Shown: piece after piece, positions 41,978 to 63,763 of the stretch | Numbering within the stretch: position 1 is the stretch's first letter | Layout of the letters: every line of letters begins with the position of its first letter | NCBI GenBank assembly: GCA_965235655.1 | Contig: CBDDYU010000001.1 | Coordinates: 203,791 to 267,790, forward strand | Direction of reading: 5' to 3' | DNA: 64,000 bases | Source: Candidatus Pelagibacterales bacterium | GTDB taxonomy: Bacteria > Pseudomonadota > Alphaproteobacteria > Pelagibacterales > Pelagibacteraceae | The notes under the pieces: generated by a model | Database searches by the model: none | What the model saw: the letters and a program-made list of their open reading frames with translations, nothing else | What the model was told of the DNA's origin: nothing | Made by a program: the position numbers and the translations under genes

Positions 41978-43021
41978 TTGTTAGTATCAACTTGTAAAAT
42001 GAACAATATTTTAATTATTGGTTTTGGCGTTGCGAGTACAGCTTATGCATCCTTATTAGATTATAATAAAAATAAAATTTTTATTTTAGGAACGCCCCTA
42101 GATAAAAAAAAAATTATCAAGATTAATAAAAATAAAAAAAAAATAGATCCTATTTTTCGAGTTAATTTTTCTAATAATGTTCAATTTTTTTCAAATATAA
42201 AAAAATTAGAAAGTATCAAGTTTTCTTTAGTTGTTGTGGGAGTAAATACAAACGGCTTAGAGTGGGCTATAAATCAAATAAACCTAATTAATTTAAATTG
42301 TCCAATTTTGCTTCTAACAAAAGGACTTTGTGTTTTTAATAATAAAATTCAAACTATTAGTGATTATTTTAAATCTAAAACAAAAATTAAACATATTGTT
42401 TCTGCTACAGGACCATGTTTGGCTGGCGAGTTAATTAAAAGAACTCATACACGTACATTGCTTTCATCTACAAGTATTAAAGTAGCTAATTTTGTTAAAA
42501 ATATTCTTAAAAATAATTTTTATCATCCTGTGATTAGCAATGACTACAAAGGTTCAGAAATTTGTGCTGCTATTAAAAACATTTATGCAACCGTAATAGG
42601 TGCGGCTATGGGTCAATCTAATTCATACTTAAAATTTAAAGATAAAAAAAATAATTATTTCAATGCAGCCTCTTTTTTATTTGAACAATCATTAAAAGAG
42701 ATGACTATCATTGTTAAGAAATACAAAGGCAAACCAGACACTGTATTGGGACCAGCTGGAGCAGGAGATTTGTATGTAAGCGCCTTGGGCGGTAGAAATA
42801 GTAAGTTAGGTTTTTTTTTAGGCCAAGGATTTAATTTTAAAAAAATAATTTCTTCCCAAATGAGAAATATTACAGTTGAAGGATCTGATTTAATATTGAA
42901 AATTGGATCAATACTAATTAGAGAAATTGGCAGCAAAAAATTACCTTTGTTAAATTTTTTATTTACAGCCATTGTTAAAAATCAAAAATTTATTATTAAC
43001 TGGAAAAAAATATCAAATTAA
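41978..43021 (+). CDS. NAD(P)-dependent glycerol-3-phosphate dehydrogenase family protein
   Basis: AAIKNIYATVIGAAMG and GAGDLYVSALGGRNSKLGFFLGQG resemble GpsA motifs. The likely start is ATG 41999 (MNNILIIGFGVAS), and the dinucleotide motif is atypical. Confidence 0.6.
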   Translation: MLVSTCKMNNILIIGFGVASTAYASLLDYNKNKIFILGTPLDKKKIIKINKNKKKIDPIFRVNFSNNVQFFSNIKKLESIKFSLVVVGVNTNGLEWAINQINLINLNCPILLLTKGLCVFNNKIQTISDYFKSKTKIKHIVSATGPCLAGELIKRTHTRTLLSSTSIKVANFVKNILKNNFYHPVISNDYKGSEICAAIKNIYATVIGAAMGQSNSYLKFKDKKNNYFNAASFLFEQSLKEMTIIVKKYKGKPDTVLGPAGAGDLYVSALGGRNSKLGFFLGQGFNFKKIISSQMRNITVEGSDLILKIGSILIREIGSKKLPLLNFLFTAIVKNQKFIINWKKISN

Positions 43022-43105
43022 TAAGGATTTTACTGACTTTTTTTGTGGGTAATTGCTAAAATGGCTTATTTATCAGTTAATAATTTAAGTGTATAGACTT
43101 GGGCC

Positions 43106-43474
43106 ATGGAAATTAGTTTTTTAAGAGATTACGCTACAATTTTAATCTTTCTTGTTATTTCAGTTTCTTTAGGATTTGGTTTTATAGTAATTAATTTTCT
43201 TTTTTCACCTAGCAACCCAGACTCTGAAAAATTATCTGCATATGAATGTGGTTTTGAAGCTTTCTCTGATTCTAGAATGAAATTTGATGTACGTTTTTAT
43301 CTTGTTGCAATCTTATTTATTATATTTGATCTAGAAGTTGCTTTTTTATTTCCTTGGGCAGTTTCTCTTGGAAAAATTGGTGCCCTAGGTTTTTGGTCAA
43401 TGATGATTTTTTTATCAGTTTTAACAGTGGGGTTTATTTATGAATGGAAAAAAGGAGCGCTAGATTGGGAATAG
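43106..43474 (+). CDS. nuoA: NADH-quinone oxidoreductase subunit A
   Basis: 122-aa ORF with 3 TM segments and an ND3-like YECGFE motif. It is the first gene of the nuo operon. Confidence 0.9.
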
Positions 43475-43992
43475 AATTAACAAACAAACTGGACAAAATA
43501 CCTTCAGAATTTAGAGAGGTTGCCGAGGAGTTTACTGAAAAAGGTTTTGTAACGATTGCAAGTAACCGATTAATCAACTGGGCAAGAACAGGATCTTTAC
43601 ATTGGATGACTTTTGGATTGGCATGTTGCGCTGTTGAAATGATGCAAACTTCGATGCCTAGATATGATTTAGAGCGATTTGGTGCTGCACCAAGAGCTTC
43701 ACCAAGACAATCTGATGTAATGATAGTTGCTGGAACCCTCACTAATAAAATGGCGCCAGCTCTAAGAAAAGTTTACGACCAGATGCCAGAGCCTAGATAT
43801 GTAATATCAATGGGAAGCTGTGCTAATGGAGGTGGTTATTATCATTATTCTTATTCAGTAGTTAGAGGTTGTGATCGAATTGTACCAGTTGATATTTATG
43901 TGCCAGGATGCCCTCCGTCTGCAGAGGCTTTGCTCTATGGTATTTTACAACTTCAAAAAAAAATTAGACGCGAAGGTAGTTTGCAAAGATAA
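43444..43992 (+). CDS. nuoB: NADH-quinone oxidoreductase subunit B (only full-length copy)
   Basis: [19 protein letters not shown] and VPGCPP are the N2-cluster Cys motifs. The start is uncertain because of a 31-nt overlap with nuoA. Confidence 0.95.
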
Positions 43993-43994
43993 AA

Positions 43995-44603
43995 ATGAAA
44001 GAAGAATATAATAATCTAAAGAGTTTAATAGAAAAAAATCAAAAAATAAAATTAACTAATTTAGAGCTAAATGACGATAATTTAATATTATCATCCTCTA
44101 AAGAAGATTTATTATTTAATATTGATTTTTTAAAAAGAAGTTCAGATTTTAAGTTCAGACAATTAGTTGATATTCTTGGAGTTGATTATCCTCAAAGAGA
44201 AATTCGTTTTGAGATTATTTATTTATTACTAAGCCATGAAAAAAATTTAAGAATTTCTATTAAAATTTGTGTTAGTGAAAATGATTTAGTTCCAAGTCTG
44301 ACCGATATTTTTCCTTCGGCAAATTGGCAAGAAAGAGAAGTTTTTGACATGTATGGTATTAAATTTTCTAATCACCCAGATTTAAGAAGAATATTAACGG
44401 ATTATGAGTTTGAAGGATATCCTTTAAGAAAAGATTTTCCTCTTACGGGTCATAAAGAAGTTAGGTACGATTCGGAGTTACAAAAAGTAGTTTATGAACC
44501 TGTTAAATTAGCTCAAGACTTCAGAGATTTTGATTTTGAAAGTCCTTGGGAAGGTTCTGAATATATAAATAAAGAGCAATTAAAAATAGAAAAAGAAAAA
44601 TAG
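43995..44603 (+). CDS. nuoC: NADH-quinone oxidoreductase subunit C, copy 1
   Basis: 202-aa 30-kDa subunit with [14 protein letters not shown]. Confidence 0.95.
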
Positions 44604-44607
44604 AATA

Positions 44608-45783
44608 ATGGCTAAGCATACAAAAACGATGAATCTAAATTTTGGACCTCAGCATCCAGCTGCCCATGGTGTTTTGAGATTAATTTTAGAATTGGATGGT
44701 GAGGTAATTGAAAGAGCAGATCCTCATATTGGTTTGCTTCATAGAGGAACAGAAAAATTAATTGAGCACAAAACTTATACCCAAGCTATTCCTTACTTTG
44801 ATCGATTAGATTATGTAGCTCCAATGAACCAAGAGCATGCATTTGCTCTGGCAGTTGAAAAATTACTTAAAATTGAAGTGCCTTCGAGAGCTCAGCATAT
44901 AAGAGTGATTTTTTGTGAAATAGGAAGAATTTTAAGTCATATACTTAATATTACAACTCAAGCTCTCGATGTGGGTGCTCTTACTCCATCATTGTGGGGA
45001 TTTGAAGAAAGAGAAAAGCTTATGGTTTTTTATGAAAGAGTTTCAGGATCAAGATTGCACGCTAATTATTTTAGACCAGGAGGTGTTCATATAGATATGC
45101 CTCACGGTTTAGCAGAAGACATTTATGATTTTTGTAAAAATTTTCCAAAGGTTATAGACGACTTAGAAACTTTGTTGACGGATAATCGCATTTTTAAACA
45201 GCGAAACGTAAATATAGGAATTATTTCTAAACAAGAAGTTTTAGATCATGGTTTCTCAGGTGTAATGTTAAGAGGTTCAGGTATTCCCTGGGATATAAGA
45301 AAATCAAATCCGTATGAATGTTATGAAGAGTTTAATTTTAAAATTCCTGTAGGAAAAAATGGAGATTGTTACGATAGATATTTATGCAGGATCGAAGAGA
45401 TGAGAGAAAGTACAAATATAATAATGCAAGCATTAGAAAAACTTCCTAAAGGACCGATCATGACTACGGACTCAAGAATTGGACCTCCTAAAAGACAAGC
45501 AATGAAGACTAGTATGGAAGCTTTGATAAATCATTTTAAACTGTATACGGAAGGTTACCACGTTCCATCAGGAGAGGTTTATGCAGCAGTAGAGGCTCCT
45601 AAAGGAGAGTTTGGAGTTTATCTTATTTCAGATGGCTCTAATAAGCCGTATAGATGCAAAATTAAAGCACCGGGTTTTGTTCATCTTCAGGCAATGAATT
45701 ATATGATTAAAGGTCATATGTTAGCTGATGTACCTGCAGTTTTAGGCTCAATGGACATTGTATTCGGAGAAGTGGATCGATGA
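44608..45783 (+). CDS. nuoD: NADH-quinone oxidoreductase subunit D, copy 1
   Basis: 391-aa 49-kDa subunit with [14 protein letters not shown] and HRGTEKL. Confidence 0.95.
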
Positions 45784-46379
45784 GTGGAAAACACATAGCA
45801 AAAGAACAACCTAAAAGCTTTATTTTTTCAGAAATTAATTTGAAAAAAAAAGATGAAATTTTAAAAAAATATCCTGAACAAAGAAAAAAAAGTGCAGTTA
45901 TGCCTTTATTGTATTTAGCTCAAAAACAAAATGATGGATGGATACCTTTGGCAGGAATTCAGTATATTGCTGACCTACTAGAAGTGCCGTACATAAAAGT
46001 TTTTGAAGTTGCAACGTTTTACACCATGTACAATCTTGCTCCGGTTGGAAAATACTTTGTTCAAGTATGCACTACAACTCCATGTATGATTAGAGGATCT
46101 GGAAAAATTGTAGATATGTGTAAGAAATATATTTCTGAAAAAGAAGGTCATTTGAGCGAGGATAAAAAAAGCTCTTGGATTGAGGTGGAGTGTTTGGGGG
46201 CTTGTGTAAATGCTCCCATGATACAAATTAATGATGATTATTATGAAGATTTAGATGAGCAGTCTGCTAAAAAAATTTTTCAAAGTTTTAATGATGATAG
46301 TTTACCCAGTATCGGATCTCAAAAAGGAAGAAAAGGTTCTGAACCCATAAGAGATCGTTTAACTTTAATAAAAAATTAG
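45780..46379 (+). CDS. nuoE: NADH-quinone oxidoreductase subunit E, copy 1
   Basis: 199-aa 24-kDa subunit with 2Fe-2S Cys motifs VCTTTPC and ECLGAC. Confidence 0.95.
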
Positions 46380-47642
46380 ATGCTAAAAGATAAAGATAGA
46401 ATTTTTACAAATTTATATGGCGACGATAGTTTTGATCTAAATTCATCTATAAAGCGTGGTGATTGGAAAGATATAAAAGAAATTACCAATAAAGGAAAAG
46501 ACTGGATTATAGATCAAATAAAAAAATCAGAATTAAGAGGAAGGGGTGGCGCTGGTTTCCCGACAGGTGTTAAATGGTCTTTTGCTCCTAAAGAAGTTAA
46601 AGAAGGAAGACCTCACTATCTTGTAATTAATGCAGATGAATCTGAACCTGGCACATGTAAAGATAGAGATATTATTCGCTATGAACCGCAAAAATTAATC
46701 GAAGGATGCTTGATTGCTTCATATGCAGTTAGTGCAAACACTTGTTATGTTTACATAAGGGGAGAATATGTAAATGAGGGTAAAATTTTACAGCAGGCGA
46801 TTGATCAAGCCTATGAGAAAGGTTATTTGGGAAAAAATGCTGCTGGCACTGGATGGGATTTGGATATGTATATCCATTTTGGAGCAGGAGCATATATTTG
46901 TGGAGAAGAGACTGCTTTACTTGAAAGCTTAGAAGGTAACAAGGGCCAACCTAGATTAAAACCTCCATTCCCAGCTTTGGTAGGGCTTTATGGCTGCCCA
47001 ACCATTGTCAATAATGTAGAAACTGTAGCAGTTGTTCCAACTATTTTAAGAAGAGGAGCTGATTGGTTTGCGTCTTTTGGAAGACCAAAAAATAGAGGTA
47101 CAAAAATTTTTTGTATTTCAGGAAATGTAAACAACCCTTGCAATGTTGAGGAGGAAATGAGCATACCTCTAAAAGATTTAATTGAAAAACATGCTGGCGG
47201 AGTAACAGGAGGTTGGGACAATCTTCAAGCTGTTATTCCAGGTGGATCTTCGATGCCTTTATTGCCAAAAAGAGTTTGTGAAACAATATTAATGGATTTT
47301 GATTCTTTAATAGAAGCGAAGAGTGGACTTGGGACCGCAGGCATTGTTGTCATTGATAAATCGCAAGATATTGTTAAATGCATTTCTAGAATTGCAAGAT
47401 TTTATAAACACGAAAGTTGTGGACAGTGCACTCCTTGTAGAGAAGGCTCTGGGTGGATGTGGAGAATGTTAGAGAGAATTGGAAGGGGAGAAGCGGACAT
47501 AGAAGAAATAGATATGTTAATGGATGTTACTAAGCAAATTGAAGGTCATACAATTTGTGCTTTTGGTGAGGGTTCTTCATGGCCAGTGCAAGGTTTATTA
47601 AGACATTTTAGAAAAGAAATGGAAGAGAAGTGTAATGCCTAA
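46380..47642 (+). CDS. nuoF: NADH-quinone oxidoreductase subunit F, copy 1
   Basis: 420 aa with the FMN site [10 protein letters not shown] and the N3 motif [12 protein letters not shown]. Confidence 0.95.
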
Positions 47643-49647
47643 AGTTAAAGTAGATGGAATAGAAATTGAAGTTGAGAATGGAACCACGGTTTTACAAGCT
47701 TGTGAAATAGCTGGAAAAGAAATTCCAAGATTTTGTTATCATGAAAAATTATCCATAGCAGGAAATTGTAGAATGTGTTTAGTAGAAATGGAAAAATCAC
47801 CAAAGCCAGTTGCATCATGTGCAATGCCAGTAGCAGAAGGGCAAGTTATTTATACGAATACACAAATGGTAAAAAAAGCAAGAGAAGGGGTAATGGAGTT
47901 CTTACTTATTAATCACCCCCTTGACTGTCCAATATGCGATCAAGGCGGAGAGTGTGATTTACAAGATCAATCAATGAAGTTTGGTGGTGGTAATTCTCGA
48001 TACGAATTAAATAAAAGATCAGTAAAAGAAAAATATATGGGTCCTTTAATTAAAACCCAAATGAACCGTTGTATTCACTGTACTCGATGTATTCGCTTTT
48101 CAGAGGAGTTAGCTGGCGTACCTGATTTAGGTGCAATAAATCGAGGTGAAAATATGGAGATTACTACTTTTCTTGAAAAAACGATTAATAGTGAGTTGTC
48201 AGCTAATGTAATAGATCTCTGCCCTGTAGGTGCATTAACATCAAGACCTTATGCATTTGAAGCAAGACCTTGGGAGCTAACAAAAACTGAAACCATTGAT
48301 GTGATGGATGCGGTTGGGTCCAATATTAGAGTTGATACTAAAGGCTGGGAGGTGAAAAGAATTTTACCTCGCACAAATGAAGAAATTAACGAAGAGTGGA
48401 TTTCAGATAAAACAAGATATGCTTGTGATGGTCTGTTAAATAATAGGATAGATAGTCCTTTTGTACGAAAAAATGGAAAATTAATCGAGTGTTCTTGGGA
48501 TGACGCATTTGTAGAAATTTCAAATCAAATTAACAAAACTGTTCGAGTAGGTGGAATAATTGGATCTACAGTTGATCTAGAGAGCATATATGCTTTTAAA
48601 CTTTTAATTAATAGTTTGGCAGGTTCAAATTCTATAGATTTTAGACAAAAAGATTTTTATTTTAATCCATCGCATCCTGGAAATTATTTATTCAATAGTT
48701 CAATTGAAGGAATTGATCATTCAGATTTGATTTTATTAATTGGCGCAAATCCTAGAACTGAAGCTACTATGGTTAATGCTAGAATTAGAAAAAATTATGC
48801 TCAAAAAAAACTAGATATTTTTTCTATAGGCTTACCTGAAGATCAAACTTATAAAATTAATTTCTTGGGAGATAATTTAAGTATCTTAAGGGATATTCTA
48901 AATGAAAAAAATTCTTTTTTTGAAAAGTTAGCAAAAGCAAGAAAACCAATGTTTATTATTGGTGAGTCTGTTTTAAATTCGCTTCAAGGTCAATTTGTAA
49001 TTGAAACTTCAAAATTAATTTTAAAAAAATATAATCAACTCAATGCTTTAAATATTCTTCATCAATCCGCCTCATCAGTTGGAGCTATAATGATAGGAGC
49101 ATATAATTTAATAGAAAATGTTGTTCAAAATGAAATTTTGTATTTGTTAGGAGCTGATGAAATTAACATCGATAAAAAAAATAAGTTTATTATTTATCAA
49201 GGATCACATGCTAGTAAAAACGCAAAAATTGCTGATGTAATTTTACCAGGAGCAGCTTTTACTGAAAAAGATGGACTGTATGTAAATCTCGAAGGAAGGG
49301 TTCAGTCAGCTTATAGGGCCTCATATCCTCCAGGAAATGCAAAAGAGGATTGGAAAATATTAAGAGCTTTATCAGAAACGTTAAACAAAACCCTTAAATT
49401 TAATACAATTGAGGAACTCAGAATTAAATTATTCGAGTCCTTTCCTTCATTATCAAAAATCGATGAACTGCCGATTATAGATTATTCCAATTTAGATATT
49501 AGTGAAAAAAAATTAGATTTAGACTCTGTAGTTCACTACCAATATCTTGATTATTATCAATCCAATGAAATTGCTAGATCATCAGCTACAATGATGGAAT
49601 GTAAAATTGCAAGAGAAAAATTAAAAAAAACTGGAACTGATGATTAG
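47635..49647 (+). CDS. nuoG: NADH-quinone oxidoreductase subunit G, copy 1
   Basis: 670 aa with the motifs [29 protein letters not shown] and RCIHCTRC. Confidence 0.95.
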
Positions 49648-50641
49648 TGAATATTTAAATATAATATTTTTTGACAGCTTAAAAATTTTAGCTTTACTAA
49701 TGCCAGTGTTAATTGCTGTTGCATTAATCGTTTGGGTTGATCGAAGAGTTTGGGGTTTGGTACAACTTAGAAAAGGTCCAAATGTAGTTGGTCCTTTTGG
49801 TTTATTACAAACAGCAGCTGATGCACTGAAATATATTTTTAAAGAAATTATTATTCCTGCTGGAGCAAATAAGGTTATTTTTGTTTTAGCTCCAGTCGTT
49901 ACAATGTCACTTGCTCTATTGGCTTGGGCGGTAATACCTTTTGGTGAAAATCTTTATGTAACTAATATTAATGTAGGTATTCTATATTTATTCGCTGTTT
50001 CATCTCTCGGTGTATATGGAATAATTATGGCTGGCTGGGCATCGAATTCTAAATATCCTTTTTTAGGTGCCTTAAGATCAGCTGCACAAATGGTTTCATA
50101 TGAAGTTTCTATAGGTTTTATTATTGTTACTGTGTTGTTGTGCGTAGGTTCATTAAACTTAGTGGATATTGTGGTTGCTCAAAAAAAAATATGGTTTGCT
50201 ATTCCTTTATTTCCAATGTTTGTAATTTTTTTTATTTCTGCACTTGCAGAAACAAACAGACCTCCATTTGATTTGCCAGAGGCGGAAGCGGAATTAGTTT
50301 CTGGATATCAAACTGAGTACTCAGGAATGATGTATGCATTATTTTGGCTAGGTGAATATGCAAATATTCTTCTTATGTGTGCCCTAGGTTCAATTTTGTT
50401 TTTAGGCGGGTGGTTACCACCACTTGATATCTCACCTTTTAATTTAATACCTTCACCGATATGGTTAATTTTAAAAATTTTATTACTTTTTTTTGTTTTT
50501 GCATTGGTTAAGGCAATAGTACCTCGATATAGATATGATCAATTAATGAGATTAGGATGGAAAGTATTTTTACCTATTTCGTTATTATGGGTAATATTAA
50601 CCTCATCTGTGTTATTTTACTTTAACCTTCTACCTAATTAA
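49640..50641 (+). CDS. nuoH: NADH-quinone oxidoreductase subunit H, copy 1
   Basis: 333-aa ND1-like polytopic protein with [14 protein letters not shown]. Confidence 0.95.
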
Positions 50642-50643
50642 TT

Positions 50644-51129
50644 ATGAAATTTAGTCGAATTGTTAAAACAGTCTTTTTATTAGAATTTGTTAAAGGATTA
50701 TTGTTGGCAATTAAGTATATGTTTAAACCTAAAGCTACAGTCAACTATCCATTTGAAAAAGGACCGTTAAGTCCAAGATTTAGAGGTGAACATGCATTAA
50801 GAAGATATCCAAATGGAGAGGAGAGATGTATAGCCTGCAAATTATGCGAAGCCATTTGCCCCGCCCAAGCAATTACAATTGATGCAGAGCTTAAAGAAGA
50901 TGGCTCAAGAAAAACAACTCGTTATGACATTGATATGGTTAAATGTATTTACTGTGGTTTGTGTCAAGAGGCTTGCCCAGTAGATGCAATTGTTCAGGGT
51001 CCAAACTTCGAATTCTCAACCGAAACTAAAGAGGAATTATATTACAATAAAGAAAAACTTTTAGATAACGGTGATCGATGGGAGAAAGAAATAGCTCATA
51101 ATATAAAAACAGATAAATCCTATAGATAA
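50644..51129 (+). CDS. nuoI: NADH-quinone oxidoreductase subunit I, copy 1
   Basis: 161 aa with two 4Fe-4S motifs, [12 protein letters not shown] and [12 protein letters not shown]. Confidence 0.95.
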
Positions 51130-51131
51130 CA

Positions 51132-51741
51132 ATGTTAGCGCACGCAATTATTTTTTACTTTTTTTCTTTTGTAGTAATAGCTTCTTCGGTGATGGTTATA
51201 TCATCAAAAAACACAGTGCATGCTGTTTTCTTTTTAATATTAGATTTTGTAAGTGTTGCTTGTCTTTTTATAATGCTTGGAGCAGAATTTTTAGGAATGA
51301 TAACCTTAATTGTTTATGTTGGAGCAGTTGCGGTGTTGTTTTTGTTCGTTGTTATGATGATTAATATTAATTTTTCAGAACTAAAAACTGGATTTTTAGA
51401 TTATTTGCCATTTGGAATGTTGATTGGAGTTGTCATTTTTATTGAATTAGTAATGATGATAAGTGCATGGAAATATAAAGCTGAATTTATTGTTACCAAA
51501 AAAATAGCCAAACCACTCGTGAGTAATACTGAAAGTCTTGGAATGATTATTTACACAGATTATATTTTATTTTTTCAAATTTCGGGTTTGATTTTATTAG
51601 TAGCAATGATTGGAGCAATCGTTTTAACATTTAGAAGGAAAGATTCTTTAAGAAGGCAGGATATAACTACTCAAGTTTCCAGAGAAAGAGACGAATCTGT
51701 TGAATTGCGAGATGTTCCAAATTTTAAAGGTGTTAAAATTA

Positions 51742-51749
<8 letters not shown>
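51132..51749 (+). CDS. nuoJ: NADH-quinone oxidoreductase subunit J, copy 1
   Basis: 205-aa ND6-like membrane protein in the conserved operon position. Confidence 0.9.
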
Positions 51750-52283
<534 letters not shown>

Positions 52284-52285
52284 AA

Positions 52286-52894
52286 ATGAAAGAAGAATAT
52301 AATAATCTAAAGAGTTTAATAGAAAAAAATCAAAAAATAAAATTAACTAATTTAGAGCTAAATGACGATAATTTAATATTATCATCCTCTAAAGAAGATT
52401 TATTATTTAATATTGATTTTTTAAAAAGAAGTTCAGATTTTAAGTTCAGACAATTAGTTGATATTCTTGGAGTTGATTATCCTCAAAGAGAAATTCGTTT
52501 TGAGATTATTTATTTATTACTAAGCCATGAAAAAAATTTAAGAATTTCTATTAAAATTTGTGTTAGTGAAAATGATTTAGTTCCAAGTCTGACCGATATT
52601 TTTCCTTCGGCAAATTGGCAAGAAAGAGAAGTTTTTGACATGTATGGTATTAAATTTTCTAATCACCCAGATTTAAGAAGAATATTAACGGATTATGAGT
52701 TTGAAGGATATCCTTTAAGAAAAGATTTTCCTCTTACGGGTCATAAAGAAGTTAGGTACGATTCGGAGTTACAAAAAGTAGTTTATGAACCTGTTAAATT
52801 AGCTCAAGACTTCAGAGATTTTGATTTTGAAAGTCCTTGGGAAGGTTCTGAATATATAAATAAAGAGCAATTAAAAATAGAAAAAGAAAAATAG
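52286..52894 (+). CDS. nuoC: NADH-quinone oxidoreductase subunit C, copy 2
   Basis: DNA identical to copy 1 at offset 8291. Confidence 0.9.
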
Positions 52895-52898
52895 AATA

Positions 52899-54074
52899 AT
52901 GGCTAAGCATACAAAAACGATGAATCTAAATTTTGGACCTCAGCATCCAGCTGCCCATGGTGTTTTGAGATTAATTTTAGAATTGGATGGTGAGGTAATT
53001 GAAAGAGCAGATCCTCATATTGGTTTGCTTCATAGAGGAACAGAAAAATTAATTGAGCACAAAACTTATACCCAAGCTATTCCTTACTTTGATCGATTAG
53101 ATTATGTAGCTCCAATGAACCAAGAGCATGCATTTGCTCTGGCAGTTGAAAAATTACTTAAAATTGAAGTGCCTTCGAGAGCTCAGCATATAAGAGTGAT
53201 TTTTTGTGAAATAGGAAGAATTTTAAGTCATATACTTAATATTACAACTCAAGCTCTCGATGTGGGTGCTCTTACTCCATCATTGTGGGGATTTGAAGAA
53301 AGAGAAAAGCTTATGGTTTTTTATGAAAGAGTTTCAGGATCAAGATTGCACGCTAATTATTTTAGACCAGGAGGTGTTCATATAGATATGCCTCACGGTT
53401 TAGCAGAAGACATTTATGATTTTTGTAAAAATTTTCCAAAGGTTATAGACGACTTAGAAACTTTGTTGACGGATAATCGCATTTTTAAACAGCGAAACGT
53501 AAATATAGGAATTATTTCTAAACAAGAAGTTTTAGATCATGGTTTCTCAGGTGTAATGTTAAGAGGTTCAGGTATTCCCTGGGATATAAGAAAATCAAAT
53601 CCGTATGAATGTTATGAAGAGTTTAATTTTAAAATTCCTGTAGGAAAAAATGGAGATTGTTACGATAGATATTTATGCAGGATCGAAGAGATGAGAGAAA
53701 GTACAAATATAATAATGCAAGCATTAGAAAAACTTCCTAAAGGACCGATCATGACTACGGACTCAAGAATTGGACCTCCTAAAAGACAAGCAATGAAGAC
53801 TAGTATGGAAGCTTTGATAAATCATTTTAAACTGTATACGGAAGGTTACCACGTTCCATCAGGAGAGGTTTATGCAGCAGTAGAGGCTCCTAAAGGAGAG
53901 TTTGGAGTTTATCTTATTTCAGATGGCTCTAATAAGCCGTATAGATGCAAAATTAAAGCACCGGGTTTTGTTCATCTTCAGGCAATGAATTATATGATTA
54001 AAGGTCATATGTTAGCTGATGTACCTGCAGTTTTAGGCTCAATGGACATTGTATTCGGAGAAGTGGATCGATGA
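52899..54074 (+). CDS. nuoD: NADH-quinone oxidoreductase subunit D, copy 2
   Basis: DNA identical to copy 1 at offset 8291. Confidence 0.9.
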
Positions 54075-54670
54075 GTGGAAAACACATAGCAAAAGAACAA
54101 CCTAAAAGCTTTATTTTTTCAGAAATTAATTTGAAAAAAAAAGATGAAATTTTAAAAAAATATCCTGAACAAAGAAAAAAAAGTGCAGTTATGCCTTTAT
54201 TGTATTTAGCTCAAAAACAAAATGATGGATGGATACCTTTGGCAGGAATTCAGTATATTGCTGACCTACTAGAAGTGCCGTACATAAAAGTTTTTGAAGT
54301 TGCAACGTTTTACACCATGTACAATCTTGCTCCGGTTGGAAAATACTTTGTTCAAGTATGCACTACAACTCCATGTATGATTAGAGGATCTGGAAAAATT
54401 GTAGATATGTGTAAGAAATATATTTCTGAAAAAGAAGGTCATTTGAGCGAGGATAAAAAAAGCTCTTGGATTGAGGTAGAGTGTTTGGGGGCCTGTGTAA
54501 ATGCTCCCATGATACAAATTAATGATGATTATTATGAAGATTTAGATGAGCAGTCTGCTAAAAAAATTTTTCAAAGTTTTAATGATGATAGTTTACCCAG
54601 TATCGGATCTCAAAAAGGAAGAAAAGGTTCTGAACCCATAAGAGATCGTTTAACTTTAATAAAAAATTAG
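54071..54670 (+). CDS. nuoE: NADH-quinone oxidoreductase subunit E, copy 2
   Basis: Protein identical to copy 1, with 2 synonymous differences. Confidence 0.9.
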
Positions 54671-55933
54671 ATGCTAAAAGATAAAGATAGAATTTTTACA
54701 AATTTATATGGCGACGATAGTTTTGATCTAAATTCATCTATAAAGCGTGGTGATTGGAAAGATATAAAAGAAATTACCAATAAAGGAAAAGACTGGATTA
54801 TAGATCAAATAAAAAAATCAGAATTAAGAGGAAGGGGTGGCGCTGGTTTCCCGACAGGTGTTAAATGGTCTTTTGCTCCTAAAGAAGTTAAAGAAGGAAG
54901 ACCTCACTATCTTGTAATTAATGCAGATGAATCTGAACCTGGCACATGTAAAGATAGAGATATTATTCGCTATGAACCGCAAAAATTAATCGAAGGATGC
55001 TTGATTGCTTCATATGCAGTTAGTGCAAACACTTGTTATGTTTACATAAGGGGAGAATATGTAAATGAGGGTAAAATTTTACAGCAGGCGATTGATCAAG
55101 CCTATGAGAAAGGTTATTTGGGAAAAAATGCTGCTGGCACTGGATGGGATTTGGATATGTATATCCATTTTGGAGCAGGAGCATATATTTGTGGAGAAGA
55201 GACTGCTTTACTTGAAAGCTTAGAAGGTAACAAGGGCCAACCTAGATTAAAACCTCCATTCCCAGCTTTGGTAGGGCTTTATGGCTGCCCAACCATTGTC
55301 AATAATGTAGAAACTGTAGCAGTTGTTCCAACTATTTTAAGAAGAGGAGCTGATTGGTTTGCGTCTTTTGGAAGACCAAAAAATAGAGGTACAAAAATTT
55401 TTTGTATTTCAGGAAATGTAAACAACCCTTGCAATGTTGAGGAGGAAATGAGCATACCTCTAAAAGATTTAATTGAAAAACATGCTGGCGGAGTAACAGG
55501 AGGTTGGGACAATCTTCAAGCTGTTATTCCAGGTGGATCTTCGATGCCTTTATTGCCAAAAAGAGTTTGTGAAACAATATTAATGGATTTTGATTCTTTA
55601 ATAGAAGCGAAGAGTGGACTTGGGACCGCAGGCATTGTTGTCATTGATAAATCGCAAGATATTGTTAAATGCATTTCTAGAATTGCAAGATTTTATAAAC
55701 ACGAAAGTTGTGGACAGTGCACTCCTTGTAGAGAAGGTTCTGGGTGGATGTGGAGAATGTTAGAGAGAATTGGAAGGGGAGAAGCTGACATAGAAGAAAT
55801 AGATATGTTAATGGATGTTACTAAGCAAATTGAAGGTCATACAATTTGTGCTTTTGGTGAGGGTTCTTCATGGCCAGTGCAAGGTTTATTAAGACATTTT
55901 AGAAAAGAAATGGAAGAGAAGTGTAATGCCTAA
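54671..55933 (+). CDS. nuoF: NADH-quinone oxidoreductase subunit F, copy 2
   Basis: Protein identical to copy 1, with 2 synonymous differences. Confidence 0.9.
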
Positions 55934-57938
55934 AGTTAAAGTAGATGGAATAGAAATTGAAGTTGAGAATGGAACTACGGTTTTACAAGCTTGTGAAATA
56001 GCTGGAAAAGAAATTCCAAGATTTTGTTATCATGAAAAATTATCCATAGCAGGAAATTGTAGAATGTGTTTAGTAGAAATGGAAAAATCACCAAAGCCAG
56101 TTGCATCATGTGCAATGCCAGTAGCAGAAGGGCAAGTTATTTATACGAATACGCAAATGGTAAAAAAAGCAAGAGAAGGGGTAATGGAGTTCTTACTTAT
56201 TAATCACCCCCTTGACTGTCCAATATGCGATCAAGGCGGAGAGTGTGATTTACAAGATCAATCAATGAAGTTTGGTGGTGGTAATTCTCGATACGAATTA
56301 AATAAAAGATCAGTAAAAGAAAAATATATGGGTCCTTTAATTAAAACCCAAATGAACCGTTGTATTCACTGTACTCGATGTATTCGCTTTTCAGAGGAGT
56401 TAGCTGGTGTACCTGATTTAGGTGCAATAAATCGAGGTGAAAATATGGAGATTACTACTTTTCTTGAAAAAACAATTAATAGTGAGTTGTCAGCTAATGT
56501 AATAGATCTCTGTCCTGTAGGTGCATTAACATCAAGACCTTATGCATTTGAAGCAAGACCTTGGGAGCTAACAAAAACTGAAACCATTGATGTGATGGAT
56601 GCGGTTGGGTCCAATATTAGAGTTGATACTAAAGGCTGGGAGGTGAAAAGAATTTTACCTCGCACAAATGAAGAAATTAACGAAGAGTGGATTTCAGATA
56701 AAACAAGATATGCTTGTGATGGTCTGTTAAATAATAGGATAGATAGTCCTTTTGTACGAAAAAATGGAAAATTAATCGAGTGTTCTTGGGATGACGCATT
56801 TGTAGAAATTTCAAATCAAATTAACAAAACTGTTCGAGTAGGTGGAATAATTGGATCTACAGCTGATCTAGAGAGCATGTATGCTTTTAAACTTTTAATT
56901 AATAGTTTGGCAGGTTCAAATTCTATAGATTTTAGACAAAAAGATTTTTATTTTAATCCATCGCATCCTGGAAATTATTTATTCAATAGTTCAATTGAAG
57001 GAATTGATCATTCAGATTTGATTTTATTAATTGGCGCAAATCCTAGAATTGAAGCTACTATGGTTAATGCTAGAATTAGAAAAAATTATGCTCAAAAAAA
57101 ACTAGATATTTTTTCTATAGGCTTACCTGAAGATCAAACTTATAAAATTAATTTCTTGGGAGATAATTTAAGTATCTTAAGGGATATTCTAAATGAAAAA
57201 AATTCTTTTTTTGAAAAGTTAGCAAAAGCAAGAAAACCAATGTTTATTATTGGTGAGTCTGTTTTAAATTCGCTTCAAGGTCAATTTGTAATTGAAACTT
57301 CAAAATTAATTTTAAAAAAATATAATCAACTCAATGCTTTAAATATTCTTCATCAATCTGCCTCATCAGTTGGAGCTATAATGATAGGAGCTTATAATTT
57401 AATAGAAAATGTTGTTCAAAATGAAATTTTGTATTTGTTAGGAGCTGATGAAATTAACATCGATAAAAAAAATAAGTTTATTATTTATCAAGGATCACAT
57501 GCTAGTAAAAACGCAAAAATTGCTGATGTAATTTTACCAGGAGCAGCTTTTACTGAAAAAGATGGCCTGTATGTAAATCTCGAAGGAAGGGTTCAGTCAG
57601 CTTATAGGGCCTCATATCCTCCAGGAAATGCAAAAGAGGATTGGAAAATATTAAGAGCTTTGTCAGAAACGTTAAACAAAACCCTTAAATTTAATACAAT
57701 TGAGGAACTCAGAATTAAATTATTCGAGTCCTTTCCTTCATTATCAAAAATCGATGAACTGCCGATTATAGATTATTCCAATTTAGATATTAGTGAAAAA
57801 AAATTAGATTTAGACTCTGTAGTTCACTACCAATATCTTGATTATTATCAATCCAATGAAATTGCTAGATCATCAGCTACAATGATGGAATGTAAAATTG
57901 CAAGAGAAAAATTAAAAAAAACTGGAACTGATGATTAG
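55926..57938 (+). CDS. nuoG: NADH-quinone oxidoreductase subunit G, copy 2
   Basis: Differs from copy 1 by V->A, I->M and T->I, plus 9 synonymous changes. The ORF is intact. Confidence 0.9.
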
Positions 57939-58932
57939 TGAATATTTAAATATAATATTTTTTGATAGCTTAAAAATTTTAGCTTTACTAATGCCAGTGT
58001 TAATTGCTGTTGCATTAATCGTTTGGGTTGATCGAAGAGTTTGGGGTTTGGTACAACTTAGAAAAGGTCCAAATGTAGTTGGTCCTTTTGGTTTATTACA
58101 AACAGCAGCTGATGCACTGAAATATATTTTTAAAGAAATTATTATTCCTGCTGGAGCAAATAAGGTTATTTTTGTTTTAGCTCCAGTTGTTACAATGTCA
58201 CTTGCTCTATTAGCTTGGGCGGTAATACCTTTTGGTGAAAATCTTTATGTAACTAATATTAATGTAGGTATTCTATATTTATTCGCTGTTTCATCTCTCG
58301 GTGTATATGGAATAATTATGGCTGGCTGGGCATCGAATTCTAAATATCCTTTTTTAGGTGCCTTAAGATCAGCTGCACAAATGGTTTCATATGAAGTTTC
58401 TATAGGTTTTATTATTGTTACAGTGTTGTTGTGCGTAGGTTCATTAAACTTAGTGGATATTGTGGTTGCTCAAAAAAAAATATGGTTTGCTATTCCTTTA
58501 TTTCCAATGTTTGTAATTTTTTTTATTTCTGCACTTGCAGAAACAAACAGACCTCCATTTGATTTGCCAGAGGCGGAAGCGGAATTAGTTTCTGGATATC
58601 AAACTGAGTACTCAGGAATGATGTATGCATTATTTTGGCTAGGTGAATATGCAAATATTCTTCTTATGTGTGCCCTAGGTTCAATTTTGTTTTTAGGCGG
58701 GTGGTTACCACCACTTGATATCTCACCTTTTAATTTAATACCTTCACCGATATGGTTAATTTTAAAAATTTTATTACTTTTTTTTGTTTTTGCATTGGTT
58801 AAGGCAATAGTACCTCGATATAGATATGATCAATTAATGAGATTAGGATGGAAAGTATTTTTACCTATTTCGTTATTATGGGTAATATTAACCTCATCTG
58901 TGTTATTTTACTTTAACCTTCTACCTAATTAA
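57931..58932 (+). CDS. nuoH: NADH-quinone oxidoreductase subunit H, copy 2
   Basis: Protein identical to copy 1, with 4 synonymous differences. Confidence 0.9.
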
Positions 58933-58934
58933 TT

Positions 58935-59420
58935 ATGAAATTTAGTCGAATTATTAAAACAGTCTTTTTATTAGAATTTGTTAAAGGATTATTGTTGGCA
59001 ATTAAGTATATGTTTAAACCTAAAGCTACAGTCAACTATCCATTTGAAAAAGGACCGTTAAGTCCAAGATTTAGAGGCGAACATGCATTAAGAAGATATC
59101 CAAATGGAGAGGAGAGATGTATAGCCTGCAAATTATGCGAAGCCATTTGCCCCGCCCAAGCAATTACAATTGATGCAGAGCTTAAAGAAGATGGCTCAAG
59201 AAAAACAACTCGTTATGACATTGATATGGTTAAATGTATTTACTGTGGTTTGTGTCAAGAGGCTTGCCCAGTAGATGCAATTGTTCAGGGTCCAAACTTC
59301 GAATTCTCAACCGAAACTAAAGAGGAATTATATTACAATAAAGAAAAACTTTTAGATAACGGTGATCGATGGGAGAAAGAAATAGCTCATAATATAAAAA
59401 CAGATAAATCCTATAGATAA
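58935..59420 (+). CDS. nuoI: NADH-quinone oxidoreductase subunit I, copy 2
   Basis: One V->I difference and one synonymous change relative to copy 1. Confidence 0.9.
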
Positions 59421-59422
59421 CA

Positions 59423-60040
59423 ATGTTAGCGCACGCAATTATTTTTTACTTTTTTTCTTTTGTAGTAATAGCTTCTTCGGTGATGGTTATATCATCAAAA
59501 AACACAGTGCATGCTGTTTTCTTTTTAATATTAGATTTTGTAAGTGTTGCTTGTCTTTTTATAATGCTTGGAGCAGAATTTTTAGGAATGATAACCTTAA
59601 TTGTTTATGTTGGAGCAGTTGCGGTGTTGTTTTTGTTCGTTGTTATGATGATTAATATTAATTTTTCAGAACTAAAAACTGGATTTTTAGATTATTTGCC
59701 ATTTGGAATGTTGATTGGAGTTGTCATTTTTATTGAATTAGTAATGATGATAAGTGCATGGAAATATAAAGCTGAATTTATTGTTACCAAAAAAATAGCC
59801 AAACCACTCGTGAGTAATACTGAAAGTCTTGGAATGATTATTTACACAGATTATATTTTATTTTTTCAAATTTCGGGTTTGATTTTATTAGTAGCAATGA
59901 TTGGAGCAATCGTTTTAACATTTAGAAGGAAAGATTCTTTAAGAAGGCAGGATATAACTACTCAAGTTTCCAGAGAAAGAGACGAATCTGTTGAATTGCG
60001 AGATGTTCCAAATTTTAAAGGTGTTAAAATTAATGATTGA
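59423..60040 (+). CDS. nuoJ: NADH-quinone oxidoreductase subunit J, copy 2
   Basis: Identical to copy 1. Confidence 0.9.
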
Positions 60041-60344
60041 AATTACTTTAGCTCACTATCTTTTTTTATCAGCTGTAGTTTTTACTATAGGAATTATAGG
60101 AATTTTTTTAAATCGAAAAAATGTAATTGTTATTTTAATGTCAGTTGAACTTATATTAATAGCAGTAAATATAAATTTAGTTTCGTTTTCAGTTTATTTA
60201 AATGATTTAGTAGGACAGGTATTTACCATGTTTGTTTTAACTGTTGCCGCTGCAGAAGCGGCAATAGGCCTAGCTATATTAGTTGTTTTTTTTAGAAACA
60301 AAGGAAGCATTCACGTTGAGGATATAAATTCTCTAAAGGGTTAA
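60033..60344 (+). CDS. nuoK: NADH-quinone oxidoreductase subunit K, copy 2
   Basis: Protein identical to copy 1, with 1 synonymous difference. Confidence 0.9.
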
Positions 60345-60346
60345 TT

Positions 60347-62257
60347 ATGGCTTATTTACTTATTTTTTTACCGTTAGTAGCTTCTTTTGTAGCCGGTTTT
60401 TTTGGTAGATCGCTCGGTGATAAGAAGTCCCAATTAATAACTTGCTCAGCTGTAACTATATCGGCTTTAATCTCCATCTATTATTTTTTTGATGTTGCCT
60501 TAGGAAAACAAATTTACAACTATAAAATAATTAATTGGATAAGTTCTGATAAATTAATTTTAAATTGGTCAATTTATATTGATACTTTGACCTCAGTGAT
60601 GCTGGTAGTTGTTACTAGTGTTTCTGCATTGGTTCATATTTATTCTATTGGATACATGAGTCATGATCCAGACAAGCCAAGGTTTATGTCTTACTTATCG
60701 TTATTTACTTTTATGATGTTAATGTTAGTGACATCAGATAATTTTTTACAATTATTCTTTGGCTGGGAAGGAGTTGGTCTTGCCTCTTATTTATTAATAG
60801 GGTTTTGGTTTAAAAAACCATCCGCAAACGCTGCAGCAATAAAAGCATTTGTAGTTAATAGAGTAGGAGATTTTGGTTTAGCAATTGGAATTTTTCTTCT
60901 TTTTAAATACCTTGGTACACTAAATTTTTCTGAAGTATTTCAACAAATATCTTCTTTGCAAAATGAAAAATTATCCATGTTAGGTATGGAAGGTTCTTTG
61001 ATTACTTTTATTTGTGTTTTTTTATTTATCGGTGCAATGGGAAAGTCTGCACAAATAGTTTTGCACACATGGTTACCAGACGCCATGGAGGGACCAACTC
61101 CAGTATCGGCCCTTATTCATGCTGCCACAATGGTTACAGCTGGAGTTTTTTTAGTTGTAAGATGTTCTCCAATTTTTGAATATTCTCAATTTGCATTAAA
61201 TCTAATTGTTTTTATTGGTGCAACCACTGCTTTTTTTGCAGCAACAATCGGTTTAGTTCAAAATGATATCAAAAGAGTTATTGCTTATTCTACTTGTAGC
61301 CAGTTAGGTTACATGTTTTTTGCAGCAGGATTGGGCGCTTATCATATTGCAATATTTCATTTATTTACCCATGCTTTTTTTAAAGCTTTGCTTTTTTTAG
61401 GAGCGGGATCTGTAATACATGCTTTTCACGAGGAACAAGATATGCGTAACATGGGAGGCGTTTGGAAAAAAATTCCTTACACTTATGCTTTAATGATCAT
61501 TGGAACTCTCGCATTAACAGGATTTCCATTTCTTGCTGGTTTTTATTCTAAAGACGCAATTATTGAAGTTGCATTTCAATCTAAATCAATTTTAGCAAAT
61601 TATGCCTTATTTATTGGTATTTTTACTGCATTCATGACTTCATTATATTCATGGAGATTAATTTTTAAAACATTTCATGGAAATTTCAGAAACAAAAATA
61701 TCGATTTATCTAAAGTTCATGAGTCACCTTTTGTGATGTTATTGCCATTGGTAGGCTTATCCATTGGTGCAATATTTTCAGGATTTGTTTTTAAAGATTA
61801 TTTTATTGGAAGTTATTTCATGGAATTTTGGAATAATTCTATTTTCTTTATGAAGCAATTTACATTGAATCATCCTCCTTTGTGGTTTTTATTAATTACG
61901 CCAACTTTAGTCTTGGCCGCAATACCTATTGCATATTATTTATTTGTTAAAAATGAAAATTTCCTAAAGCAATTTATTGATACAAATAAACCTTTATATA
62001 ATTTTTTATTGAACAAATGGTATTTTGATGAGTTATATGATTTTATTTTTGTTAATCCTGCAAAAAAAATTGGAAAATTTTTTTGGAATATAGGAGATAT
62101 ATTAATTATAGATGGTTTTGGTCCTAATGGATTTGCAAAGATAGTTAAATTAGTTTCTGATAGAGCAGTACAATTTCAAAGTGGTTTTTTATATCACTAT
62201 GCTTTTGTAATACTTATAGGTTTATCTATTTTATTAACATACATCATTATTTTTTAA
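60347..62257 (+). CDS. nuoL: NADH-quinone oxidoreductase subunit L
   Basis: 636-aa ND5-like antiporter-type subunit (WLPDAMEGPTPVSALIHAATMV), single copy. Confidence 0.95.
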   Translation: MAYLLIFLPLVASFVAGFFGRSLGDKKSQLITCSAVTISALISIYYFFDVALGKQIYNYKIINWISSDKLILNWSIYIDTLTSVMLVVVTSVSALVHIYSIGYMSHDPDKPRFMSYLSLFTFMMLMLVTSDNFLQLFFGWEGVGLASYLLIGFWFKKPSANAAAIKAFVVNRVGDFGLAIGIFLLFKYLGTLNFSEVFQQISSLQNEKLSMLGMEGSLITFICVFLFIGAMGKSAQIVLHTWLPDAMEGPTPVSALIHAATMVTAGVFLVVRCSPIFEYSQFALNLIVFIGATTAFFAATIGLVQNDIKRVIAYSTCSQLGYMFFAAGLGAYHIAIFHLFTHAFFKALLFLGAGSVIHAFHEEQDMRNMGGVWKKIPYTYALMIIGTLALTGFPFLAGFYSKDAIIEVAFQSKSILANYALFIGIFTAFMTSLYSWRLIFKTFHGNFRNKNIDLSKVHESPFVMLLPLVGLSIGAIFSGFVFKDYFIGSYFMEFWNNSIFFMKQFTLNHPPLWFLLITPTLVLAAIPIAYYLFVKNENFLKQFIDTNKPLYNFLLNKWYFDELYDFIFVNPAKKIGKFFWNIGDILIIDGFGPNGFAKIVKLVSDRAVQFQSGFLYHYAFVILIGLSILLTYIIIF

Positions 62258-62260
62258 TTT

Positions 62261-63763
62261 ATGAATTTTCCGATTTTATCAATAATTATTTTTTTACCAT
62301 TGGTAGGCGTACTTTTTATTTTATTGAATAGCGGAGATGAAATAAAAGTTAAAAAAACTAGCTTTAGAGTTTCTCTACTAACATCATTGCTTGTTTTTAT
62401 AATGTCACTTTTTTTGTGGTTACAATTTGATAACACAACAAAAGATTTTCAATTTGTTGAAAATAAAAAATGGATTGTAGACTTTATTAATTATAGGGTC
62501 GGTGTCGACGGTATCTCAATTCTATTTGTTGTTTTAACTGCTTTTATAACTCCAATTTGTATTGTTGCCACTTACAATAGCGTAACAAATAGAACAAAAG
62601 ATTTTTTTATTGCTTTGCTGGTCATGGAAACAATGATGCTAGGTGTTTTTTGTTCTTTAGATTTATTTATTTTTTATTTATTTTTTGAGGCAGGCTTAAT
62701 TCCAATGTTTTTAATCGTTGGGATTTGGGGTGGTATAAGAAGAGTTTATGCAGCCTTTAAGTTTTTCTTGTACACGCTTTTTGGTTCTGTGTTTATGCTT
62801 GTTGCAATTATTTTTATATATTTAGAAACCGGCACTACTGATATTCAAACAATTTTATCTTTTAATATTGATCAAAAATATCAATATTGGTTATGGCTTG
62901 GTTTTTTTGCTTCTTTTGCAGTTAAAACTCCCATGTGGCCTGTACATACTTGGTTACCAGACGCACACGTTGAAGCACCAACTTCTGGTTCAGTTATTCT
63001 TGCAGCAATTTTATTAAAAATGGCTGGATATGGTTTTATTAGATTTTCATTAGGATTTTTTCCAATTGCATCAGCTTATTTTGCCCCTCTTATTTTTGCT
63101 TTGAGCATTGTTGCCGTAATTTACACTTCCTTAGTTGCATTGATGCAAAAAGATATGAAAAAATTAATTGCTTATTCGTCTGTAGCTCATATGGGTTTTG
63201 TTACTATTGGTATTTTTGCTTTTAATTCACAAGGAATAGAAGGAAGTATATTCCAAATGATTAGCCATGGAATTGTGTCTGCAGCATTATTTTTATGCGT
63301 AGGAGTTGTTTACGACCGAATGCATACCAGAGAAATTTCAGAATATGGTGGAGTGGTTAATACGATGCCAAGATATTCAGTTATTTTTTTAGTATTTATT
63401 CTTGCAGGCTTAGGTCTTCCCGGAACAAGTGGATTTGTTGGAGAGTTTTTGGTTTTGATAGGTGCTTTTAAAGCAAATTATTTAGTTGCTTTTTTTGCTG
63501 CTACAGGAGTCGTATTATCAGCATGCTATAGTTTGTGGCTTTATAGAAGAGTAATATTTGGTGCCGTCGCAAATGATAATGTAAAATTATTGAAAGAAAT
63601 AAACAAAACTGAATTAGCGACACTTTTGCCTTTAGTTTTTTTAACTATTTTACTTGGCGTTTTTCCAAATATTATTTTAGATACAATCTCAGTCAGTGTG
63701 GAGAATGTTATTTCTGTCTATAATGAAAAATTACTAATCTTAAAACAGGCCTCTATTAAATAA
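62261..63763 (+). CDS. nuoM: NADH-quinone oxidoreductase subunit M
   Basis: 500-aa ND4-like subunit with WLPDAHVEAPTSGSVILAAILLK. Confidence 0.95.
   Translation: MNFPILSIIIFLPLVGVLFILLNSGDEIKVKKTSFRVSLLTSLLVFIMSLFLWLQFDNTTKDFQFVENKKWIVDFINYRVGVDGISILFVVLTAFITPICIVATYNSVTNRTKDFFIALLVMETMMLGVFCSLDLFIFYLFFEAGLIPMFLIVGIWGGIRRVYAAFKFFLYTLFGSVFMLVAIIFIYLETGTTDIQTILSFNIDQKYQYWLWLGFFASFAVKTPMWPVHTWLPDAHVEAPTSGSVILAAILLKMAGYGFIRFSLGFFPIASAYFAPLIFALSIVAVIYTSLVALMQKDMKKLIAYSSVAHMGFVTIGIFAFNSQGIEGSIFQMISHGIVSAALFLCVGVVYDRMHTREISEYGGVVNTMPRYSVIFLVFILAGLGLPGTSGFVGEFLVLIGAFKANYLVAFFAATGVVLSACYSLWLYRRVIFGAVANDNVKLLKEINKTELATLLPLVFLTILLGVFPNIILDTISVSVENVISVYNEKLLILKQASIK

Follow-up and report, generated by a model that had tools for sequence, protein, structure and literature searches.

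A head-to-tail repeat within the nuo (Complex I) operon of a brackish-water SAR11 genome probably joins two strain variants of a single-copy locus

Some bacteria possess genuine second Complex I clusters, which are divergent paralogues found at separate loci, usually as complete sets. The locus described here resembles such paralogous nuo operons in presenting more than one nuo gene set per genome, but differs from them in that the additional set is partial, 99.7% identical to the first and nested within one operon. Two other described systems should be considered. The first is false heterotype duplication (Ko et al. 2022, PMC9516828), the purge_dups/purge_haplotigs problem, where false assembly duplications arise mainly from haplotype divergence and, when located on the same scaffold, typically carry a gap. 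With this system the locus shares adjacent, near-identical copies in one sequence, real haplotype alleles, a single copy in other assemblies and an error-prone source assembly, although its source is a mix of bacterial strains instead of a diploid and it has a blunt, in-frame join with no N gap. The second is the spontaneous RecA-independent tandem duplication or amplification described in Salmonella and Pseudomonas (PMC12607827), with which the locus shares the head-to-tail arrangement, the kilobase scale, a novel junction showing little or no homology, and a mode of origin for which a mobile element is not needed. Fresh duplications of this kind are, however, identical and unstable, the loss rates of tandem duplications of 2.6-18 kb being 1e-4 to 9e-4 for each generation (PMC12607827), whereas here the copies differ by 0.28% and carry population-derived alleles, with neither an independent sighting nor an evident selective agent.

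The window (the whole stretch of 64,000 nucleotides analysed) contains an alphaproteobacterial-type 14-gene nuoA-N operon, the ORF order of which is collinear with loci of 99.3-99.8% identity. In those loci, the genes match PF00507, PF01058, PF00329, PF00346, PF01257, PF01512, PF00384 and others, PF00146, Fer4, PF00499, PF00420 and PF00361 (three times). The sole departure of the window from the nuoA-N order is an inserted second 'B-K block, and the gene map of the preliminary description, A-B-C..K-[L'::'B]-C..K-L-M-N, proved correct, with the junction ORF being an in-frame fusion. The ORF list likewise bears out that nuoA, full-length nuoB, nuoL and nuoM are present once, and that nuoC to nuoK are intact in each copy (18 ORFs, of equal lengths between the copies). 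The coordinates of all features are collected in Table 1.

Table 1. Positions of the operon genes, the repeat and the upstream error patch in the window.
Feature	Position	Strand	Basis and content
Dense single-base insertion patch	34717..41124		Comparison with all independent assemblies; no deletions
nuoA, single copy	43106..43474	+	ORF; orthologue in 99.6%-identical loci matches PF00507 Oxidored_q4
nuoB, full length, 182 aa	43444..43992	+	Translation; PF01058 in orthologues
Repeat copy 1	43795..52085	+	Self-comparison; 3' third of nuoB, nuoC-D-E-F-G-H-I-J-K and first 30 nt of nuoL
Chimeric ORF NuoL(1-10)::NuoB(118-182)	52056..52283	+	Translation; in-frame, 75 aa
Novel junction TTTTTACCGTTA/AGATATGTAATA	52074..52097	+	Blunt fusion of nuoL codon 10 with nuoB codon 118; no bases in common
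Repeat copy 2	52086..60376	+	Content as copy 1, from which it differs by 23 substitutions (54478..60260)
nuoL, single copy	60347..62257	+	ORF; gene order in orthologous loci
nuoM, single copy	62261..63763	+	ORF; gene order in orthologous loci
nuoN start	from 63764, cut by the window end (64000)	+	ORF; gene order in orthologous loci

The repeat is direct, with two head-to-tail copies at a period of 8,291 bp, no spacer and no N between them, and one novel junction at 52085/52086. Equality at an offset of 8,291 spans exactly one period, and the junction is without microhomology. The coordinates and the lack of a spacer given in the preliminary description thus stand, whereas its statement that the same segment is repeated does not, as the copies differ at 23 sites (99.72% identity). 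By boundary arithmetic, the left boundary cuts nuoB between codons 117 and 118, and the join is in frame with codon boundaries on both sides, for which the chance is roughly 1/3 to 1/9. The fusion ORF keeps the GSCA and GCPP cysteines and lacks the CC motif, the truncated NuoB piece holding half of the N2 cluster ligands. A cluster look-up found this protein recorded once only, on the source contig (NCBI, 460,702 bp), and an exact look-up in a gene-position index gave no match. In agreement with the earlier reading that no IS element, transposase, integrase or long flanking repeat is involved, neither another repeat of at least 40 nt nor a mobile-element ORF or transposase was found at the repeat boundaries.

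The differences between the copies are informative as to their origin. All 23 lie within 46187-51969 in copy 1 coordinates, the first 2,392 bp being identical, and 19 of them are transitions. Nineteen are synonymous and four non-synonymous (pN/pS 0.056, binomial p = 5e-10). When compared with same-population contigs, copy 1 approximates the population consensus, while copy 2 carries minority alleles, of which 20 of the 23 recur in independent assemblies from other samples of this ~99.5%-identical population, partly in linked blocks (nine in contig L110). The exact copy 2 NuoG and NuoI proteins are also present on other contigs with ordinary single-copy operons. The copies are thus neither identical nor set apart by private mutations acquired after a duplication; the allele sharing and the synonymous excess led us to reject such mutational divergence, and they indicate two natural strain haplotypes rather than a fresh duplication that has mutated. 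For comparison, copy 1 differs from the genomes L092, L088 and L084 at 17, 18 and 19 sites, respectively, and from copy 2 at 23. Private and rare alleles together number 1.1/kb over the upstream flank and copy 1, as compared to 5.7/kb in the central part of copy 2 and 3.0/kb over the downstream flank (p = 0.015), a contrast that fits a switch of haplotype at or after the junction. The rare allele 44231A, seen in 1 of 15 other contigs, is common to both copies; together with the 2.4 kb of identity, this indicates that the two haplotypes are close relatives.

We searched for the duplication elsewhere, including the comparison with nuo operons of related genomes proposed in the preliminary description. 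No self-repeat of at least 300 bp was found in 80 related genomes. The junction was absent from 27 same-population contigs (23 with an uninterrupted nuoK-nuoL site and 21 with an uninterrupted nuoB site) and from 119 fetched loci, and scanning JGI metagenome contigs with the junction 24-mer gave no matches. A search of the literature on tandem duplication in SAR11 likewise yielded no pertinent paper. When referring to these counts, it should be considered that short-read assemblies collapse tandem repeats and that most of the single-copy contigs are, therefore, weak evidence. The operon is also single-copy in two indel-laden, long-read-type assemblies of the population, GCA_965235715.1 (a 279-kb contig) and JGI 3300066022.

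Signs of weak assembly are found near the repeat. Relative to independent assemblies, to which five loci from a gpsA-anchored metagenome scan, of no use for the junction, were added for this mapping, the window contains 68 single-base insertions and no deletions at 19184..41124, and none from position 41125 onward. The preliminary description had called the rest of the window extremely compact; this does not hold throughout, as the dense part of this tract frameshifts sufD, sufS, nifU, sufT, sufA, the NAD kinase and the AFG1 ATPase, as well as sufE, a second nifU, two small ORFs and EamA, thereby wrecking the essential genes of the suf operon. The inserted bases are uniform in composition within a region of 72% A+T, and the substitutions beneath them are mostly synonymous, and we therefore regard the insertions as sequencing errors over a real haplotype. 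To judge from this patch, parts of the contig rest on very thin read support. The insertions stop 2.7 kb upstream of the repeat, and no such errors occur in either copy or in the flanks.

Taken together, we consider it quite probable that the repeat is an assembly artefact in which two co-occurring strain variants were stitched end to end. Of the two origins offered in the preliminary description, recent amplification is weakened by the 0.28% divergence and the population alleles, while an artefact gains because the junction is absent elsewhere and clear assembly errors adjoin the repeat. The source would be a long-read or hybrid assembly of the metagenome type, made from a brackish SAR11 population with much micro-diversity, in which two variants of one single-copy nuo operon were placed head to tail, with variant A providing everything up to nuoL codon 10 and variant B everything from nuoB codon 118 on. 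The join could go back to a chimeric long read, or to two assembly pieces whose overlap was left un-merged. The true genome would then have one nuoA-N operon, the 75-aa ORF would be absent from the cell and, we infer, no real molecule would stand behind the junction.

Some observations count against an artefact. The join is seamless and blunt, with neither a gap nor an obvious contig boundary between the copies; this lowers the artefact reading but is not fatal to it, since no gap is left where a join was gap-closed or came from a chimeric read. Overlap and graph assemblers require a read containing the junction, and at least one molecule or chimeric read thus probably carried it. The insertion-free copies and flanks suggest good read support there; in a false duplication, the read depth per copy would be halved. 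The in-frame join at codon boundaries would keep translational coupling into the second nuoC. The sharing of 44231A and the 2.4 kb of identity were also counted on this side. If the repeat is an artefact, the consequence is a practical one. A public genome, apparently a species representative, then contains 8.3 kb of false sequence with nine spurious paralogues, a fusion protein that does not exist and about 70 errors that shift reading frames, all of which would inflate paralogue counts and pseudogene calls in a group famous for having neither.

A real duplication of either kind is, in our view, unlikely. It is improbable that 'nuoB-nuoK underwent a heritable tandem duplication in one SAR11 lineage, presumably kept because the dosage of the peripheral arm and H/J/K was selected for, and long enough for one copy to gain population alleles via homologous recombination. 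Read-through of the operon would extend from A-B to L-M-N, with the in-frame fusion preserving translational coupling. SAR11 recombination is very frequent, and two copies could drift to population-level diversity; the identical flanks around a 4.6-kb divergent centre do resemble a recombination tract. The in-frame codon-boundary junction, the rare allele found in both copies and the lack of the upstream errors in the repeat region also speak for such a duplication, as do the 18 intact genes with differences under strong purifying selection, although such selection is equally expected if the differences arose in separate single-copy genomes. Against it, no second sighting was made in any other assembly of this widespread population, two long-read-type assemblies included, and the junction is missing from the JGI contigs. 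To our knowledge, streamlined SAR11 genomes are essentially without large paralogous duplications. A 1:1 complex would be left with an odd stoichiometry, and the NuoB piece has only half of the N2 ligands. Loss at ~1e-4 to 1e-3 per generation would be expected, and gene conversion would homogenise tandem copies. Interpolating the published loss rates (PMC12607827), the half-life of an 8-kb tandem duplication would be about 10^3 generations, which is far too short for the divergence seen. A brackish SAR11 (subclade IIIa-like) lineage with two functional, selectively maintained nuoC-K sets that recombine with the population is unlikely. Such a lineage, if real, would provide the first case of a large paralogous amplification among streamlined SAR11 genomes, together with a natural variant in the dosage or isoforms of the electron-input and quinone modules of Complex I. 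It would put the current view of SAR11 genome streamlining in question and would allow the stoichiometry of Complex I subunits to be studied in a natural experiment, but the evidence here does not support a real duplication.

It is highly improbable that the duplication was real but transient, arising as a spontaneous RecA-independent event in a single cell or molecule, with one long read fixing the contig path and reads from different strains serving to fill or polish the copies; the repeat would then not be a property of the population. Frequencies of 1e-2 to 1e-5 per locus and cell are given for spontaneous duplications (PMC12607827). By our own rough estimate, a random ligation chimera of two fragments from the same 10-kb locus in the same orientation would be rarer per read than that. 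The blunt, homology-free junction fits illegitimate joining, and the contig has stretches resting on very few reads. A fresh duplication should, however, yield identical copies, and symmetric polishing of such copies with mixed reads should give the same consensus twice rather than 23 consistently minority alleles in one copy, some of them linked. The scenario also requires that reads from different strains were tiled in a special way.

Synthetic alteration of the window, considered because the uniform composition of the insertions resembles simulation, was rejected as the 23 copy differences match natural alleles and as the same insertion-type errors are seen in L116, a publicly available JGI contig from this population. 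Duplication mediated by a mobile element or a long repeat was dismissed given the lack of repeats of at least 40 nt and of a transposase. As to the left repeat boundary, contig L093 begins 31 bp inside it, which we judged to be a coincidence (roughly p = 0.08).

Comparison of the window with itself at an offset of 8,291 bore out the preliminary description of an 8,291-bp head-to-tail direct repeat in the nuo (Complex I) operon, with no spacer, N or microhomology at the join (52085/52086). The copies had been described as the same segment; they are a direct repeat but are not identical, as 23 substitutions and no indels separate them (99.72% identity). All 23 lie within 46187..51969 (copy-1 coordinates), such that the first 2,392 bp contain no difference and the last 1,298 bp a single differing site. 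As had been claimed, the duplicated genes are intact and no further long repeat, transposase or integrase was found at either boundary. Only NuoG (three residues) and NuoI (one residue) differ between the copies at the protein level. The left boundary falls exactly between nuoB codons 117 and 118 and the right one between nuoL codons 10 and 11, and the ORF at the junction is therefore in frame, ending at the normal nuoB stop, 2 bases upstream of the second nuoC. Its translation, compared with full-length NuoB, is without the CC motif, and of the four cysteines that ligate cluster N2 the chimera would thus presumably keep only two.

Coordinates of the repeat and of other features in the window
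Feature	Position	Strand	Remark
Low-GC region	2000..7300	−	GC 0.20-0.23; run of short minus-strand ORFs
Putative NDUFA12-family ORF (PF05071)	16651..17019		122 aa
AFG1-family ATPase gene	38198..39284		
tRNA-Thr(TGT)	41853..41928		flanked by EamA and gpsA; close to nuo operon on its upstream side
Repeat copy 1	43795..52085	+	
Repeat copy 2	52086..60376	+	
nuoC-nuoK	both copies	+	intact, lengths equal between copies
NuoL(1-10)::NuoB(118-182) chimera	52056..52283	+	75 aa; in-frame junction ORF

NuoH assigns the window to Pelagibacterales, its best species-representative match having 93% amino-acid identity (Fonsibacter, 83%). Exact-protein look-ups gave 27 contigs with 99.3-99.8% identity to the window over the nuo operon; their sample labels, as interpreted here, suggest Baltic, Caspian, estuarine and other brackish-water origins. 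Alleles are shuffled among these contigs as a mosaic, and they and the window are one cohesive, highly recombining population.

Of the 23 copy differences, 19 are synonymous and the other four conservative replacements (pN/pS = 0.056; binomial p = 5e-10 against random placement), with 19 transitions and four transversions, and neither sequencing errors nor decay of a redundant copy can therefore be their source. Other single-copy contigs of the population carry 20 of the 23 copy-2 alleles, some in linked runs, such as 48117T, 48183A and 48222T in one contig (L095) and nine alleles from 48183 to 50787 in another (L110). Copy 1 has the majority allele at nearly all 23 sites, and differs from several other genomes at 17-19 sites as compared with 23 from copy 2. 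In the central 4.6 kb, private-or-rare alleles amount to 5.7/kb in copy 2 versus 1.1/kb in copy 1 and the upstream flank; the 3.0/kb found in the downstream nuoL-M flank (p = 0.015) hints that, beyond the repeat, the right flank continues the copy-2 haplotype and the left flank that of copy 1. Some uncommon alleles are common to both copies (e.g. 44231A, which 1 of 15 other contigs has), and these haplotypes are therefore close relatives, differing mainly by one tract. NuoG codon 375 (48757..48759 in copy 1, 57048..57050 in copy 2) has three states in the population. Ten contigs read ACA (Thr), copy-2-type contigs read ATT (Ile), and copy 1, with ACT (Thr), thus has the majority base at 48758 next to a minority base at 48759.

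The comparison with nuo operons of related genomes that had been proposed went against the duplication, as none of 80 had a self-repeat of at least 300 bp around nuoH. Among the 27 same-population contigs, the nuoK-nuoL site is uninterrupted in 23 and the nuoB site in 21, and none contains the junction 24-mer (52074..52097) or 16-mer; the 24-mer also had no match among JGI metagenome contigs. The only record of the 75-aa fusion protein is on the source contig, an NCBI contig of 460,702 bp where both NuoG variants are found as well. It should be considered that most comparison contigs are short-read assemblies, in which tandem repeats collapse, and the absence of the junction is thus only moderate evidence. 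GCA_965235715.1 (a 279-kb contig) and JGI 3300066022 are more informative, both being indel-laden, of long-read type and with a single-copy nuo operon. An independent short-read contig with copy-2-type NuoG (ENA ERZ23486330 scaffold_4429) starts at 43826, 31 bp inside the left boundary, which we judged a coincidence (about p = 0.08); alternatively, the assembly graph may branch there in that sample.

Alignment to independent same-population assemblies revealed 68 extra single bases and no missing ones in 19184..41124 (sparse in 19184..22218, one at 32996, dense in 34717..41124), a few occurring in adjacent twos or threes; 41125..64000 is free of insertions. Insertion-type differences extend also to 7219..9565, and the window as a whole has 68 or more single-base insertions and no deletions. 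The inserted bases (A19/C17/G18/T14, in a region of 72% A+T) adjoin an identical base in only 16 of 68 cases, which rules out homopolymer slips, and they frameshift sufD, sufS, nifU, sufT, sufA, NAD kinase, the AFG1-type ATPase, sufE, a second nifU and EamA. After their removal, the remaining substitutions in this stretch are mostly third-position (for the AFG1 gene, 40 of its 55), and the stretch is therefore a real haplotype on which insertion-type sequencing errors are superimposed. The insertions look like unpolished long-read error, and this stretch shows the contig to be a long-read or hybrid one, parts of which are supported by very few reads. The AFG1 gene differs by ~5% of nucleotides from all other population contigs (neighbours, <1%) and is probably a tract acquired by recombination with a more distant lineage. 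Two single-base indels, at 8105 and 9565, are common to the window and GCA_965235715.1 and are not in two short-read contigs (L118, L119); one splits pepA into ORFs of 169 and 338 aa and the other changes purN at its 3' end. Either these are genuine lineage-specific frameshifts, or the read errors are shared or systematic, in which case the two public assemblies may not be independent.

We consider the repeat to be most likely an assembly artefact. A false heterotype duplication, the commonest duplication error type in assemblies (PMC9516828), would arise if two strain variants had their DNA joined, whether in vitro or in silico, and where reads are so few, one chimeric read or un-merged overlap could set the contig path. 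A fresh duplication would give identical copies rather than 23 differences. Tandem duplications of 2.6-18 kb are lost at a measured 1e-4 to 9e-4 per generation (PMC12607827), i.e. with half-lives of roughly 10^3 generations, and mutation after duplication could thus not reach 0.28% divergence; the alleles are, moreover, borrowed from the population and not new. A heritable duplication, kept long enough for recombination to overwrite one copy, is unlikely. In favour of a real duplication, the join is in frame and codon-exact, no gap lies between the copies, both are clean in sequence, and graph or overlap assemblers normally require at least one junction-bearing read. Nonetheless, a heritable duplication would require that selection for an odd dosage of subunits be sustained, that a truncated NuoB fragment be tolerated, and that the repeat persist yet escape sampling everywhere else in a population that has been sequenced widely. 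Still less likely is a transient single-cell duplication caught by one read, its copies filled in from different strains.

If real, the repeat likely originated, as we infer, from blunt illegitimate joining of sister chromosomes or from homology-facilitated illegitimate recombination with other-strain DNA, in which nuoB codon 118, where the incoming DNA begins on the left, would be fused to nuoL codon 10 and a homologous crossover farther downstream would complete the event. The transcript would then read through A-B-C..K-[L'::'B]-C..K-L-M-N, so that, relative to A, B, L, M and N, template dosage would be twofold for H, I, J and K and for all of the N and Q modules but NuoB. The repeat is most likely no biological feature. 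In practice it is of value as a warning flag on a public genome.

Elsewhere in the window, the ORFs of the low-GC region include fragmented LptF/LptG, a truncated PdxA and several without a Pfam match; L118 and L119, of the same population, end at about 7.1-7.3 kb, and the region may be hypervariable or hard to assemble. The tRNA is the only RNA gene found within the 64 kb. The putative NDUFA12 ORF matches, in place and size, the PF05071 gene of near-identical loci, whose family is that of a Complex I accessory subunit, and lies ~26 kb upstream of the nuo operon.
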